A DNA stretch of 64,000 nucleotides from Elusimicrobiota bacterium (GTDB lineage Bacteria; Elusimicrobiota; Elusimicrobia; JACQPE01): positions 54,939 through 118,938 of the forward strand of contig JACPAN010000013.1 in assembly GCA_016180815.1 (NCBI GenBank), written 5' to 3'. The notes beneath the pieces are model-generated. The model was not told where the DNA came from. It ran no database searches and worked only from the letters and a program-made list of their open reading frames with translations. Below, piece after piece: positions 24,301 through 39,300 of the stretch. Made by a program: the position numbers and the translations under genes. How positions within the stretch are numbered: position 1 is the stretch's first letter; every line of letters begins with the position of its first letter.

Positions 24301-27300
24301 CGATTGGGATTTAAAGAATTAGGCAAACCCACGCCGGCGCAGGAAGCGCCTATTGATTTTGCCGCTACGGCCTCCGCCAAATACGCCAATTTAGCCCGGG
24401 CCGTGCGCGAGAACGCCCGCAATCCGCAATCCCTGAGCATTGTCGCGGCAAAAAATACACGGGATATTCGTGTTTTGAGAAGACTGCTTTCGCCGTCGCT
24501 TAAACCCGCTGAAATCGCGGTTTGGGCATCCGGCAAATATGAGCTTAAAAACAATCCAAAAGCTGCCGCGAGTTTTAATATTGAAGCCTTAAAAAGAGGC
24601 ACGGCCCGGGTTCTCCTTTTGGAAGCGCCCGTGGCGGGCCGGGGTATTGACCTGCCGGGTCAAGCGCTTTACAAGAAAGTGTCCATGTTTATTTTGGACC
24701 CTCACGAACTGCCCCAAGTTTTTTACGCGCAAATCATGGGCCGCATTTTGGGCAACCGTTTCCCCAATGCCGATAAGGAATTCAAGCTTTTTGCCGATGC
24801 CCAGACCGCCGGAAGAAACCCCTATCTTATGGCCGAAGCCAAAAAAATGGGTTTTGAGAGCGTCACCGAAGAAGTCTTGAAAGCCAACATGGAAAAAGTC
24901 CAGTTGGCGGCCGAGGAAAAAGCCGTGGCCTCGTCCGCCGTCAACATAATGGCCAAACCCAGCGCTAAAGCGGCGTTGAAAACCGCTTTTGCCCCACTAT
25001 TAACGCCGCGGCGGCTGATCCCGATAGCGGTCGGGGTCGCCCTGTCCTTGGTTGTCGCGCCTTCGATCGCCATGGCTGCTGTGTCGGCTCTGGGGGTTGC
25101 CGGCGCCGGGGTCACATTAGCCTCTCATGCCATTCAATTGGGCCTGCCCATCGCAGGCGCGGCCTTAACTAGAGGGATCGTCAGTTTGATGGGAAGGGAA
25201 TCTGCCGCTTCTGTCATTGCGAGTGAAACGAAGCAATCTCAAGCTGTCACGAACACTTCCAATAACTCTAAGATTGCTTCACCCAAGGCTCGCAATGACG
25301 AAAAACAGCAAGAACCTAGGAATCTTGCCTTGACCGCGATTTTGGCCGCTGTTCCTTTCCTCCTCGGCATGGCCGCGCCGGGGGGAGGCGAGGGGATGGG
25401 AGGCTTTGCGGCTTTGGCCGGGTTGGGCCTTGGGGCTTTGGGCATGGCTTTTTGGAGGCGTTCTCCAAAACCGGCCGAGGTCAGCTACGCCGAGTGGGAA
25501 GAGAAGGCTTTAGACATTCTTAGCAAAGGCGCCTACCCCGCAACAATCGCTCAAGCGGCACAAAAGCTCGATGTCTCCGGTATTCGCCGCTTGATGAATA
25601 AATTGATCCAAGTGACGTTTAATCCCGCTTCTTCGAATGTCCTTATTGGGCCTGATTTTGATCTCCATGGCGAACGCATTAGCCGGTTATCCCGAATCAT
25701 GCTTGAACTCTATACGGATAAAAAATACGGCTGGGGGGATCGGCCTCATGAACAAGAAATCTTCCGCGATTTATTCCAAGCGATCTATGCGAAACGGGAA
25801 ATAAGAATGACTGAAGAATCTTGGAAAAGCATGTCGGATGCTGTTTTGGCCGGCCATGCCCACAATAATTATTCCGCCGGACTTTATGAGGCCTATTGGC
25901 TCCCCCGGATCAATATCGTAATGACACTAGCCCGCCAACCCTCCCTAGCAAAGAATTTGCCCGGTCTTGATTCCTTCCTGATAGGATTCATCAAAAGTGT
26001 TCGCGCGTTGCGTCAAAACGTTAACCGCTTGAATGAGCCGCTCAAAACCAGAATCAATAACATCATTAAAACACCGAGTAAGAGTGTAGTTAGCGACAGC
26101 ACCTTGCTCAATCTTATATGTTTCCTTGAATCGCATATGAGCGCCAACCCCGAATTCTTCGGCGGGCCCTGGGCCGAAGAATTAAAGACGGAACTTTTGG
26201 ACATAGCCACTCATCCCGAGATTGAGGCAACCGTCAGAACCCAGGCCCGAATGCTTATGGAGCGCCTTGAAACCTTGGATACATCGCCGCGCAATACTGC
26301 CCTAGCGCCTACGACCGAAAAGGCGGCCGCGCCCCCGGCGCCGGCTGCCCAGACCACGACCGCGCTGGTTGCCGCCAACCGTAACCATCAGGCAACGTTG
26401 GACTACCTGGTGATGATTGCGAATGAACATAATGAAAAATTGACTGCTATCAACAAACGATGGGACAAAATTTTCTACGCGGCAATGGCTGTAACAATAG
26501 GCACAATTTTTGTTTCCATCCCAGCCGTTTTTGCCGTCGGACTTGCGTCATTGCTGTTTGTCCTGGCAGGCCATAAAAAGCAGTCTAGTTCAATCAAAAA
26601 AGCATTAGCCGAAGACCAAGCTTTGACCGAAAATCCCCATTTTATCGAAGCCTTGGAAGAGATTGAGCGAGAGTCCCCTGAGAATCTTAAAGCCCGGTTC
26701 GCAGAATTGGAGAGACGCATGAGCGCAGGGGAACTGCCTGCCGCCCTGCCTCCGGCTCAGCAAAGGATCCATGTAGAGGGGTCCGCCGGGGTCACCATTG
26801 ACATTGACGCCCAAGAACTCGAAGCCGATGCGAACGAAGTCGTTTTGTCCCGGCCCCCCCAGACCGAGCGCGGCCGCAACGGCCAACGCGGGTTTGCCTT
26901 GGTGGGATCATTGCTGGCCGCGCTGGGTCTTACGACCGGACTCATCGGTCTGGCCCTTTTTGTCCTGGGCATGATGGTGCCGGGGGGAGGGGGTGTGGCG
27001 GCAGCCGGAGCTCTAATTTTTGGCGGCGCTGCGGCCTTGGGCTCTCTGACGGTTGGTTTCAAATGGCTTCGTTCCAAGTATAGATCGCTACCAGCGCCGC
27101 AAAAGAATCCCGAATACACAACTTCCCCGAGCCCGTCATTGCGAGCCACGGGCGAAGCAATCTCAAAGAAGGGGTCCCCCTTATATGAGATTGCCACGGA
27201 CCCTGTGGGTCCTCGCAATGAAAAATCTGTGGAAGTTCTGACCGGATACCCCGCAAGCGTTTTTGATGCTTTGACCCGTGAGCAGAAAGCCGCCTTCGAG

Positions 27301-36300: not shown

Positions 36301-39300
36301 GATCCAGCCAATTACCGACGACTGCTTTACGCCGTCTTAGATAAGGAACTCACCAAATACGAAGATGATACCGGCGACCTTGTCCTGGCTATGCTCAAGC
36401 AATGGGAGGAGCAAGCCGGGGACTTGCCTCTTGAGGAAACCGTCAGCGTCTTGACCGCCTTAATGGAGAAATATCCCGCAGCCAAAAAAATGAGAAAGAA
36501 AATCGTCAAAGCTCTGGCCAAGCTTGGCGCGGATCCGATTGAACCTTATGACCCTGAAAAAGACGACCCTTATTTACAGGCGGCCATCCATGAAGTTGAG
36601 TCAGACAGGCAGCCATCTCAAATGACGGCTGAGGAATTAAAGGCCGCCATTGACAGGCTCCATGAACGTCAACATGCGGTAAACCCGCTCCTTCTTGCCT
36701 CTCCCCTTGAGGGAGAGGCCGCGCCCGGCGCGGGTGAGGGGTCCGTCTCGAATTCGGGGGGCACCATACTTAATTCAGGTCTGGATTCCCGCTTTCGCGG
36801 GAATGACGACGGGGAGAACGGGGAAAGGGGCATGGCGCTTTTGGGGAGCATGATCGTTGCAGGATTGGCGGGGTTGGGTTCGATGGTTTTGGTCAAAGGC
36901 GGTTTGGGTTTTGGGGGACTGATTCTGGCCGCTGGCGCGGCGGCATTGGTGGCGGGGATGGCCTTGTTGGGTAGGGGAAATGGTGAAAAAAATCACGCGG
37001 TTTTTGCCCTAAGGTTTTTCTTTACGCCCACGCAAAAAGGGGACGGGCCTTTTGAAAAAGAGGTATTGGGGCCTGTCGGCGCGCAGGCCCTGGGTTATGA
37101 CGCGCACCAAGGCTTTTTGGTTTCCGTGCCCCAGGATAAAGTTGAGGACTTTTTATCCCGGCTCAAGAGCCGGGGACGCGGCGCCGTTGCCGTTTCCAAG
37201 GAAACTTTGCAAAAACGCGAAACCATTAAAATGGACCTGCCCACCCTGCGCTATTGGGTTTATCAAGCCGAAAATCAAGGTAAGAAAGAAATTTCCCTGG
37301 TTCAAGCCAGGTCCATTTCTGTCATTCCGGCGCAAGCCGGAATCCAGGACTCACTCGGACAGCAAAGGGCCTGGATGCCGGATCAAGTCCGGCATGACGG
37401 CTTTTCGAGCAGAACCTACATCAAATTGCCGACAAGGCTTTACGAAGATTTGACGGATGGCCATGATATTGAGCCCATGCTGACCTTTGACAATAACAAT
37501 GAGGCCGTTCATTTAAAACATCTTGGCTATTCTCTTGACGGGTATTCCATTCTCAGCATTGTAACGGGACAACCGGAAGAAGCCTTGGCCTCGACCCGCG
37601 AGAACGCCCAAGCAAGGGGTGTTGCGGAAAAAGACATCGCCCAAATTACACTGGAGTCCGGGCGGATTTTCAAAACGGAAATTCCCTTGGGACCCCAAAT
37701 AATGATGAAAGTTAAAAACGAAACGATCATCGCATCGCAGTTGGCGCATTTGATTTTAAATTTTGAGGATAAAAGGGATTCTATTTTACTTTCAGTTGAT
37801 GAATTTAAAGAAATCTCAATCCCTAAGCCCAGGCGCGCCTGGCTGCAATGGCTTGACCCAGCCGGGACAGCTTCTTCCATCGCCGCCTTGGGCGCCACCC
37901 TGTTGGCTCCTCTTCTCATGGGCATGGCTCCGACGGGAGGGGGTTCGGGTTTGGGTCTCTTGTTATTCCTTGGGCTCGGGGCCGTTGGCCTGGGAATCGC
38001 GCTTTTTGAAAACTGGCCGGTCAGATTTCCCCGCACTTTCGATAAAAGCGACGGCTACTTTAATGCCGCACCGGGCGCAGGAGCAGTTCCAAAAGATCAT
38101 GAACCATTCGTCGCGGTAAAAAACCCCCATACTTTCGCCGACAATGCCAGGCTTAAGGAAGGGACGCCGTTTCATGGCCGCTCGGTATGGGATTACTCAA
38201 TTCCTTTGAATCAGGACATCAAGCTTGTCTATGCCCAAAATGCTCCCATGGCTGCCTGGACCGACGGCAAAGCGCTTTGGGTCGCGAATTTAAGAAACGG
38301 AGACATTCTAGTGGACGGTGGCATCAAAACGGATCAAACCATCCAAGAGATCGCTTTTTCTCCTGATGGCGGGAAACTGGCTTTTGCCATTAACGACACC
38401 TCGGTTAACAAAACGCAGATCCATATTGTTTCGTTTGAAGAGCGGACTTTTTGTTGGCTTACGACCATAAGGGGCGGTTTTACCAAAGGCCTCGCCTATG
38501 ACGACAAAGGCAAAATTTTGGCGGCGGTCACGACGGTTGACGGCTACGATAAGGTCACTCTCTGGGATGTCGAAAGAGGCGCCTTGGATCGCATAAGCCT
38601 ACCTGCCAAAGCGGCGCCCGCCAATGCCATTAAACACTGGAAAGGCGAAAGTTTTATTCTAACGGGGGATGGGGACAAGGCGGATATCATGGTTCTTGAG
38701 CCAACATTTACGTCTGACCAAGCATGGTTAAAAGCGTGGAAAAAACCAAGAGGAAAAATTGAGCCGGCGATCGTCATGCCTATACCCGCAATTCAAAAGA
38801 TTTTTATATCCGATCGAGATGGCCGGCTCTATGTCGCCGATTTGTTCTCAAACCAAATAAAAATTATGAAAGAACCAAAAGACGACACCCGCCGCCTAAT
38901 GGCCCTGGGCTATAGAACCGATCAAGGAAATTACATGTGGCTGAAAGAACAAGAGGCTTACCAGCTCAACGACAGCGCCTTTGGCGCTTCAGACCATCCA
39001 ATCGCTCAAGTGCGTTTCATTGACCCTGAACACCGTCTTGATCACGCGGGCCAATTCATCGCCCTTCAACCGGAAGGCAAATCCCTTGCTTTTGTTCGCG
39101 AGGGGACTCTTCACATAGTTCAATGGGAAGGCTATGGGATTGCAGCCGTCCCTCCGGTTGAGAAACCTACGGCTCAACCTGTTCAAGAAGCGCCGCCGTC
39201 TTGGCAAGTCCAACGCGAGGAAATCGCCGGCCGCATGGATATTTTCGACATCCGCGCGGTTGTCGCCAGATTGGCTGCTTGGCGGCAGGGGAACACTCTG

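Follow-up and report, generated by a model that had tools for sequence, protein, structure and literature searches.

Giant bacterial genes have so far been catalogued mainly by their length, their Pfam content and their counts of transmembrane (TM) helices. The closest described systems are the giant proteins of the Omnitrophota, which carry numerous TM helices, a divergent type of SecA-DEAD helicase domain and, in many cases, a pyruvate-phosphate-dikinase domain (West-Roberts et al., 2023, 10.1101/2023.11.21.568195). Their authors suspect that such chains are cleaved and call the cleavage points unknown (10.1101/2023.11.21.568195). For giants of this type the literature gives lengths of 10-30 thousand amino acids (kAA) and about one TM helix for every 370 residues, and the Elusimicrobia are among the phyla described as prone to huge proteins and to host association (PMC11573180). 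In this work we have analysed a stretch of 64,000 nucleotides (nt) from an uncultured Elusimicrobiota bacterium (assembly GCA_016180815.1, contig JACPAN010000013.1, positions 54,939 to 118,938 of the forward strand), hereafter the window, which contains a giant open reading frame (ORF) of 18 kb for a protein of 6,071 residues (Table 1) with recurring hydrophobic hairpins between its soluble units.

This protein is a member of the known class of giant multi-TM proteins, and what is new is one repeated hairpin module with motifs of its own. The accessible parts of three studies (10.1101/2023.11.21.568195, 10.64898/2026.06.07.730766, PMC11573180) contain no description of hairpins that recur as one module and share conserved motifs at boundary and turn. 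Like the Omnitrophota giants, among them the multi-enzyme “Archaeovorin” type (10.64898/2026.06.07.730766), our protein is encoded by a very long ORF, has TM helices every few hundred residues, is mostly orphan, and carries a putative DEAD-type helicase near one end together with a pyruvate-phosphate-dikinase-type domain. It differs from them in its Elusimicrobiota host, in its length of only 6 kAA, in that SecA_DEAD was not detected, and in that the window holds no type II/IV secretion-like locus and no genes with class III signal peptides. Its ca. 23 hydrophobic helices amount to approximately one per 260 residues and, taken as a giant protein, it is without sequence homology except to one protein from the Elusimicrobia.

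Two helices joined by a very short translocated loop, a form fit for YidC-type insertases, are found in M13 procoat and in subunit c of the ATP synthase, and in flavivirus-type polyproteins the units are separated by membrane segments; the likeness of our protein to these three is an analogy of mechanism, and no homology was found. Another comparison is with the bilobed domain of the chlamydial Inc proteins, with two lobes of ca. 20 residues, a short loop and both flanks on the same side (PMC3048545), where our hairpins have arms of 17-29 residues and loops of 1-15. However, an Inc protein is small and has a single domain of this kind, and Inc proteins are type III substrates and specific to the Chlamydiae, whereas here ca. 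11 occur in a single chain and there is no sequence relationship.

A repeated hairpin module

A regular-expression scan of the giant protein recovered four copies of motif A, [QED]RG[FM]AL[LV]G[ST][LM], at residues 1852, 4037, 4575 and 5165 (nt 26884, 33439, 35053 and 36823), and four of motif B, P/L-x-[LV]-[LM]-G-M-[AM]-[AV]?-P-x-x-G, at residues 1342, 1876, 2589 and 5527 (nt 25354, 26956, 29095 and 37909), the copy at residue 1876 being the variant LFVLGMMVPGGG. The initial annotation had listed four copies of the first and three to four of the second, and the scan agrees with it in number; all copies are internal (residues 1342-5537 of 6,071). From the composition of the protein ca. 4e-6 copies of motif A would be expected, and ca. 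0.01 of the LGMAP core of motif B. When the 64 kb of the window were scanned in six frames, both motifs turned out to be confined to the giant ORF. At the nucleotide level the copies are 47-76% identical to each other, against 84-97% between the conserved cores of the palindromes, which are the true DNA repeats (see below). Among the copies of motif A, 6-7 of the 7-9 identical residues are encoded by different codons (CGC or AGG for arginine, TCA or AGY for serine), and therefore conservation acts on the peptide and not on a DNA repeat. An origin of the motifs in DNA repeats was ruled out by these differing codons, and low complexity by the chance counts, the shuffled controls and the membrane-insertion estimates given below.

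Hydropathy analysis resolved the giant protein into an N-terminal segment and 11 bilobed hydrophobic blocks of ca. 35-60 residues (M1 to M11, Table 1). Of the approximately 11 hairpins eight can be recognised as related, and motif A, motif B or both are present in seven of the eight. In a MAFFT alignment of the eight modules motif A opens helix 1, motif B makes up the end of that helix and the turn, and a third motif lies in helix 2, the full layout being a basic stretch, RG(F/M)ALLG(S/T), (L)AP-x-LLGMAP-GGG, GLGxxxLGxAL and a further basic stretch. Local alignment scores of module against module exceeded composition-shuffled controls, with z up to 9.9. Because of this alignment, and because M4 bears both motifs, A and B can be regarded as parts of one module family. 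They had been proposed as two motif classes of separate helices; both do recur, but both lie in helix 1 of the same module. The proposal of a repeated membrane-hairpin cassette, on the other hand, is borne out by the hydropathy, by the alignment of the eight modules and by the scores against shuffled controls. A self-BLASTP of the giant protein revealed no paralogous soluble units, and its repetition is limited to the hairpins.

Table 1. Positions of the features discussed. Residues are those of the giant protein, nucleotides those of the window; ↓ marks a candidate cleavage point.
Feature	Residues	Nucleotides	Strand	Description
Giant ORF		21331..39546	+	6,071 aa, from the ORF list and translation; holds all copies of motifs A and B
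N-terminal hydrophobic segment	58-75	21502..21555	+	single, signal-anchor-like, SFISILLAISILLTAPGF; hydropathy 1.95; basic upstream flank, acidic downstream flank
M1	1229-1287	25015..25191	+	degenerate hairpin; signal-peptidase-like APSIAMA↓A
M2_B	1331-1375	25321..25455	+	motif B PFLLGMAAPGGG; helix-2 motif GLGLGALGMAF, then WRR
M3	1714-1748	26470..26574	+	hairpin without A or B; central SIP turn
M4_AB	1852-1910	26884..27060	+	motif A QRGFALVGSL and motif B LFVLGMMVPGGGG
M5	2477-2531	28759..28923	+	degenerate A GFSLLAALG; LAP of B; 15-aa loop with APNTAHA↓A; helix-2 motif GLGLGVLGMALA
M6_B	2575-2623	29053..29199	+	motif B PILLGMAPAAGDGG
M7_A	4037-4087	33439..33591	+	motif A QRGFALLGSM; ca. 20 residues past the end point of stand-alone PPDK-like homologues
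M8_A	4575-4627	35053..35211	+	motif A DRGMALLGTL; positional counterpart is hairpin 2420-2475 of P0001
M9	4929-4973	36115..36249	+	hairpin without A or B
M10_A	5165-5214	36823..36972	+	motif A ERGMALLGSM
M11_B	5513-5559	37867..38007	+	motif B PLLMGMAPTGGG; helix-2 motif GLGAVGLGIAL
Stretch shared with P0001	4610-4763	35158..35619	+	contains DGSPTPQRI; only detectable homology of the C-terminal third
PPDK-like soluble unit	2903-4023	30037..33399	+	uncharacterised domain, PEP-utilizers swivel and PPDK_N ATP-grasp (Pfam); hairpin-free separate proteins in other Elusimicrobia
Palindromic element, family 1		23796-23871, 25213-25299 (element 25209-25303), 27135-27221, 28132-28218, 34864-34941 (element 34860-34945)	+	five copies of 76-95 nt, all inside the giant ORF and translated in frame
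Second short hairpin repeat family		36781-36807		CTGGATTCCCGC-TTT-GCGGGAATGAC; translated LDSRFRGNDD; 16 nt before motif A of M10
ORFs with FDG		39746-41074(-), 41310-43409(-), 44996-45544, 47232-47810, 47768-48430, 49264-49824, 16358-17002		those scanned had no Pfam hits
Small secreted or orphan proteins		2750-3445, 3461-3979, 44996-45544, 45534-46049, 46046-46639, 49264-49824		C-terminal two-helix hydrophobic block
Putative secreted zinc metalloproteases		8192-8980(-), 39746-41074(-), 48498-49340, 52629-53468, 57068-58072(-)		HExxH (HEFGH, HEYAH, HELAH, HEYFH)

Orientation of the hairpins

All copies of motifs A and B fall inside bilobed hydrophobic stretches of 45-60 residues, with 19-residue Kyte-Doolittle means of 1.6-2.5, and the arms of the hairpins are free of charged residues. 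On a flat, position-independent Hessa-type scale, whose values are indicative only, the summed insertion energy ranged from -2.2 to +1.9 kcal/mol in 21 of the 22 arms (the median of the protein being 19.8); only 1.4% of its 19-residue windows were below 2, and the motif-bearing stretches belong to that most hydrophobic fraction. AlphaFold, run on the module alignment, predicted one helix at positions 2-33 and another at 38-70, interrupted at PGGG (mean predicted local distance difference test, pLDDT, 70.6), and a single-sequence run on M5-M6 placed the break at the PAAGDGG turn (pLDDT 57). A Foldseek comparison of the 71-residue hairpin model with the PDB returned no match and was uninformative. 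Hydropathy, insertion-energy estimates and the predicted helix-break-helix fold all support the earlier view of these segments as membrane-type helices. In some hairpins helix 1 looks like an entire Sec signal peptide that includes a canonical AxA↓ site.

The distribution of charge differs between loops and flanks. Lysine and arginine (K/R) account for just two of the 60 loop residues (3.3%), against 24.8% of the 15-residue flanks on the N-terminal side (p = 3e-6) and 18.2% on the C-terminal side (p = 0.011), the mean of the giant protein being 11.8%. ATP-dependent or other cytoplasmic-type domains flank the modules on both sides, in this protein and also in its relative described below. According to the positive-inside rule, K/R-rich flanks mark the cytoplasmic side. 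With two helices, a short and nearly uncharged loop, and K/R-rich flanks at either end, the chain would therefore re-emerge on the side from which it entered, so that both flanks of a module are probably cytoplasmic and only a tiny turn is translocated. The initial annotation had seen the modules as threading soluble domains across the membrane, a notion with which the two helices per module, the charged flanks and the cytoplasmic-type domains on both sides do not agree.

A second giant protein with hairpins

An exhaustive HMMER search with residues 4030-5225 (three A modules and M9) against 1.84 billion representatives had a single match, and this came through a soluble domain rather than through the motifs. 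The protein found (MBI2071351.1, here P0001) is a partial sequence of 5,940 residues from a groundwater Elusimicrobia metagenome-assembled genome (MAG), annotated as “sigma-70 family RNA polymerase sigma factor”. The homology is limited to about 155 residues just after M8, where 156 columns align with 31% identity (E = 8e-12). Further searches added nothing: in a word-indexed search of 5.8 billion proteins neither residues 1320-1935 (three modules) nor residues 560-1225 (the helicase-like region) had a match at E <= 1e-3; the shared-domain alignment run against GTDB genomes and JGI metagenomes gave no confirmed relative; and when metagenomes were scanned for motif A as [NKS][GK][QDE]RG[FM]AL[LV]G, there were 39 pattern matches, none of them confirmed.

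Like our protein, P0001 consists of heterogeneous units split by short-loop hairpins with K/R-rich flanks. It has at least 11 of these hydrophobic hairpins, with 25% and 21% K/R in the flanks against a mean of 12.5%, and the units that they bound, namely PP2C phosphatase, nucleotidyltransferase, ATP-grasp ligase and an entire sigma-70 factor (r2+r4), are all of cytoplasmic types. It is unlike our protein in its unit content (PP2C, an MFS-like block, ATP-grasp ligase, sigma-70), in that many of its blocks have only 30-36 residues, and in a motif set of its own: (G/N)(K/R)x(F/Y/L)S(I/L/F)(A/S)LP at the helix start (seven copies), GEP at the turn (three copies) and GGKxLIALII...SPAFA↓ATG (two to three copies). 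Modules score higher within each of the two proteins than between them (means of 41-43 vs. 31), a difference reached in 0 of 2,000 label permutations. M8_A nonetheless has its best score with its positional counterpart, partly through the conserved flank. The initial annotation had looked to homologues for the motifs; the only homologue has hairpins, but with different motifs, and on this point the expectation failed.

Domain content and unit boundaries

Searches of Pfam and NCBIfam recognised in the giant protein a helicase-like ATPase, a PPDK_N ATP-grasp domain with a PEP-utilizers swivel domain before it, and weak signals of PD40/WD40 propellers; by the same searches the rest is orphan. The helicase-like ATPase reaches the cutoff for ResIII (22.5 bits) and stays below it for DEAD (18.3 bits, cutoff 26), Pfam SecA_DEAD being undetected; its Walker-A GGGKT and DEAD motifs are present. 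A sequence search of the PDB with this region gave no match.

The unit with PPDK_N is clearly related to proteins of other Elusimicrobia. Residues 2903-3581 match a gene of 999 residues in another genome (a complete one, on a 3.1-Mb contig; 32% identity over 703 columns), in which a separate PPDK_N gene of 602 residues follows, and neither of the two has hairpins. Three relatives (P0004, P0002 and a 1,604-residue protein of metagenomic locus L084) end 2-6 residues after ...ILQARPIT, the point past which the giant protein runs on with a basic linker of ca. 20 residues and then motif A of M7. Because the PPDK-like relatives stop where linker and M7 begin, the giant protein appears to be a fusion of units that are independent elsewhere, with hairpins at the joints, and we infer that the hairpins act as linkers between units.

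Within this unit the swivel precedes PPDK_N (residues 3530-4023, nt 31918-33399), an arrangement opposite to that of PEP synthase. Relatives in the Elusimicrobia often add a low-molecular-weight phosphotyrosine phosphatase domain (PF01451). At L084 (JGI 3300045116, contig Ga0438313_0008416, 13-7385) there are two tandem paralogous genes, of at least 851 and of 1,604 residues, both with the uncharacterised domain, swivel and PPDK_N. This suggests that the family of the PPDK-like unit is expanding in Elusimicrobia-like genomes.

Palindromic repeats in and around the giant gene

The giant gene also contains true DNA repeats. The palindromes of family 1 have the structure GTCATTGCGAGC...GAAGCAATCTC-loop-GAGATTGCTTC...GCTCGCAATGAC and are translated in frame as the peptide VIASE-KQS...EIASP-ARND; the other 46 kb of the window contain no copy. 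Their 12-mer core occurs nine times, against 0.38 expected, and their RNA folds with -33 to -54 kcal/mol (z = -6 to -8). An Rfam search of the window, palindromes included, had no match. The in-frame peptide EIASSPEAPRNDG of this family is also found at the N-terminal end of P0001. A second family of short hairpin repeats (Table 1) has related cores at 37339, 41198/41253, 44002, 54361 and 59322-59340, both genic and intergenic across the window.

The palindromes do not overlap the hairpin modules. The copy at 25209-25303 sits between M1 and M2_B, which begins 18 nt after it, and motif A of M8 is ca. 108 nt downstream of the copy at 34860-34945. It had been proposed that several modules lie directly downstream of a hairpin repeat; this holds for M2_B, M8 and M10 (three of eight), but not for the others, M4 in fact being upstream of a palindrome.

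Comparison with sorting and prepilin signals

The resemblance to PEP-CTERM anchors that had been suspected was not supported. With the PEP-CTERM model (TIGR02595) the best module, M2_B, reached 8.6 bits (E = 3.7) against a cutoff of 16, and the other modules had no hit. A pattern of PEP, 18-26 residues and [KR][KR] has no match in the giant reading frame, where the turn reads GMAP-GGG; elsewhere in the window it matched two unrelated non-hydrophobic sequences, at 16730 (another ORF) and at 24263 (a stretch of 102 codons in another frame over the giant gene). The motif copies, unlike PEP-CTERM, are not C-terminal and are preceded by another membrane helix, and no exosortase was seen among the scanned ORFs of the window. 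Low score, lack of a PEP motif and internal position together led us to reject this candidate. Other sorting-signal models matched only at E > 0.1 (IPTL-CTERM 0.15, GVDTG_CTERM 0.16, MYXO-CTERM 8.5).

The boundary motif bears a likeness to class III (prepilin) signal peptides (N_methyl, PF07963), in which a basic residue and a Gly precede the F/M that opens a hydrophobic helix: all four copies of motif A read RG↓F or RG↓M. Unlike in prepilins, however, position +5 is Gly and not Glu in the four copies (F/M-A-L-L/V-G), the “leaders” would have 1,851-5,164 residues, and no pilin body follows. Only M7_A scored with N_methyl (15.9 bits, E = 0.0095, cutoff 21.2), the other three A modules having no hit, and matches to the N-terminal parts of ComGE and GspG had E values of 0.03-0.25. 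No gene of the G[FM][TS]L[IL]E type exists in any frame of the window, and no pilin, peptidase, secretion or type III secretion system genes were found in its 64 kb. We rejected membership in this class because of the Gly at +5, the score below cutoff and the internal position.

Host and neighbouring genes

PurH encoded in the window is 77% and 70% identical to that of two Elusimicrobia MAGs, the next matches being at 51-52%, and the host is thus placed as an Elusimicrobiota bacterium. The closest MAGs are CAYHKQ01 and JACQPE01. The architecture of the protein had first brought the Omnitrophota to mind as its source, an origin that we rejected on the similarity of PurH. The neighbours of the giant gene include Metallophos, an amine oxidoreductase, an M19 dipeptidase and orphan genes. 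A housekeeping ORF of the aminotransferase family (58092-59282) has its matches elsewhere only on short Logan contigs, and the organism is present in runs SRR12113431, SRR12113385 and SRR12113383.

At least seven orphan ORFs with signal peptides share the tripeptide FDG ca. 15-30 residues past the signal peptide (e.g., ATFDGARL, AIFDGGH, RIFDGGQ), for which a rough estimate of chance is ca. 0.2; this may be a lineage-specific N-terminal motif for sorting or maturation. Several small orphan proteins end in bilobed blocks that resemble the hairpins of the giant without having motif A or B. In the cluster of small putative metalloproteases, the ORFs at 48498 and 52629 are clear paralogues.

Discussion

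The explanation that we favour, with a probability of roughly 0.6, is that the repeated helical hairpins are anchors and linkers that keep a chain of largely cytoplasmic-type units, fused to one another, at the membrane's inner face. Each module, of ca. 50-60 residues (roughly 55), would start with a basic juxtamembrane stretch. RG(F/M)ALLG(S/T) would then open helix 1, P-x-LLGMAP-GGG would end it and turn the chain tightly on the far side of the membrane, and helix 2 (GLGxxxLGxAL), resembling a Gly zipper, would with its own basic stretch bring the chain back to the starting side. The units tethered in this way would be the helicase-like ATPase, the PPDK-like ATP-grasp with its swivel domain, the propellers and the orphan domains. 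Only a few residues per hairpin would have to cross, so that a YidC-type or signal recognition particle (SRP)-type route could insert the protein with no large domain being translocated. That the motifs are conserved at boundary and turn in a protein-specific way would most likely reflect helix-helix packing (small-xxx-small), recognition by a lineage-specific insertion or processing factor, or both.

Several points weigh against this explanation. The sidedness of the modules comes from the positive-inside rule and the types of domains. One N-terminal segment plus 11 two-helix modules make an odd number of helices, which either puts the first ca. 1,150 residues, including the helicase-like ATPase, outside, or means that a helix has been missed or miscounted; candidates for an extra one are the weakly hydrophobic residues 293-320 and 445-563 and the 59-residue M1, which might hold a third helix. 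Propellers of the PD40/WD40 kind, here weak matches, are often periplasmic, and the 1,604-residue relative of the PPDK-like unit begins with a signal-peptide-like sequence. The AlphaFold models reach only a moderate to low confidence (pLDDT 70.6 and 57), and packing alone offers no obvious reason for the invariant boundary residues R-G-(F/M).

The main rival view, which we think unlikely, takes the hairpins as the processing sites of a membrane-embedded polyprotein. A prepilin-peptidase-like aspartyl protease could cut at RG↓F/M on the cytoplasmic side, or signal peptidase I could cut in the turn at AxA↓; in both cases the released units would retain a single helix as their anchor, as in flavivirus polyproteins. 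Motif A does lie exactly at the boundary of cytoplasm and membrane, agrees with class III positions -2 to +1 ([KR]-G-[FM]) in four of four copies and has, in M7_A, the sub-threshold matches to N_methyl, ComGE and GspG; yet the defining Glu of prepilins at +5 is a Gly, one of the four A modules has even a weak score with the hidden Markov model (HMM), and that below the cutoff, the leader would span thousands of residues, and the boundary motif of P0001 (G-K-L-F-S-I-A-L-P) is without G↓F. No peptidase, pilin or secretion genes were found in the window. For the cut in the turn, a crude rule for AxA↓ sites picks out c-regions of signal peptidase at APSIAMA↓A (residues 1243-1250, nt 25057-25080) and APNTAHA↓A (residues 2492-2499, nt 28804-28827), as well as SPAFA↓A twice and SPAWA↓S once in P0001 (residues 2439-2444, 3243-3248 and 4022-4027). 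However, AxA is expected by chance in Ala-rich helices, and motif B (GMA-P) places a Pro at +1, where this residue resists or blocks signal peptidase I. Also in its favour are the coincidence of hairpins with the ends of units that are separate elsewhere and the complete sigma-70 unit of P0001, of the extracytoplasmic function (ECF) type, which is flanked by hairpins and whose function is hard to reconcile with such a position unless it is released; the authors of the giant-gene study also suspect cleavage at points unknown, as said above. In the fullest version, somewhat more unlikely still, one hairpin after another of the 6,071-residue chain would enter the membrane, and cleavage would yield about a dozen enzymes and regulators anchored by single helices. 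The protein-specific boundary motif and the AxA turn would be sites for an intramembrane or juxtamembrane protease, prepilin-peptidase-like at the cytoplasmic face or signal peptidase at the outer face, and one of the products in the relative would be a releasable sigma factor.

The passage of successive soluble domains alternately out and in, as in the original threading proposal, seems quite unlikely to us. Published TMHMM and DeepTMHMM runs put many domains of Omnitrophota giants outside, though the authors themselves call these localisations unreliable (10.1101/2023.11.21.568195). The propeller-like domains and the relative of the PPDK-like unit with a signal peptide would fit an extracytoplasmic location, and M3 (35 residues) and the blocks of 30-36 residues in P0001 can be read as one long helix, but the motif-bearing modules are two arms of 17-29 residues split by a Pro/Gly turn, with K/R-rich flanks on both ends, uncharged loops and ATP-dependent domains on both sides. 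Very unlikely, to our minds, is an effector-type role, in which the protein or its fragments are exported and the hairpins insert into the membrane of a host or prey, as those of Inc proteins and colicins do, or build a Gly-zipper pore. The two-lobe, short-loop geometry of the Inc domain (PMC3048545), the host association reported for the Elusimicrobia (PMC11573180), the many small secreted orphan proteins nearby, several with C-terminal two-helix blocks, and a weak match of M7_A to the C-terminal region of the type VI secretion system (T6SS) effector family BTH_I2691 (E = 2.4e-4, 19.8 bits, cutoff 150) point in this direction; against it, all family matches are far below their cutoffs, no secretion system was found in the window, and one would hardly expect the export of a 6,071-residue chain that holds 23 hydrophobic helices as well as ATP-dependent enzyme units. 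It is highly improbable that the segments are nothing specific, i.e., either low complexity of composition or the translation of repeated DNA or of a mobile element, for instance the palindromes: they are rich in Gly, Ala and Leu and three modules adjoin palindromic repeats, but the motifs are far beyond chance, the similarity of the modules is above that of shuffled controls, the codons and the nucleotide identity (47-76% vs. 84-97%) set them apart from the true repeats, and the palindromes fall outside the modules. Internalised sorting signals, PEP-CTERM-like or of another exosortase, rhombosortase or sortase type, are barely conceivable; although motif B, helix 2 and the basic cluster mimic the arrangement of signature, TM helix and Arg/Lys, and there are weak matches to CTERM models, every match is below cutoff, the PEP motif is lacking, the copies are internal, what lies upstream of the signature is a membrane helix and not an exported domain, and the window showed no exosortase.

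The TM helices of this giant protein are copies of one hairpin module, in which the residues of boundary and turn are kept by selection at the level of the peptide, and the modules sit where stand-alone proteins end. The second giant from the Elusimicrobia has the same grammar in a different motif “dialect”. From this follow hypotheses at the level of single residues: tethering on one side of the membrane, hairpin insertion of the YidC type, or proteolytic punctuation. If the motifs are only packing features, what we describe would be a modest structural annotation; if the chain is a polyprotein, they would supply the cleavage points that the field of giant proteins says it lacks. The finding also provides a rule for splitting giant proteins into their units, namely to seek repeated hairpins specific to each protein. 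The hairpins mark candidate boundaries at which such proteins might be cut.

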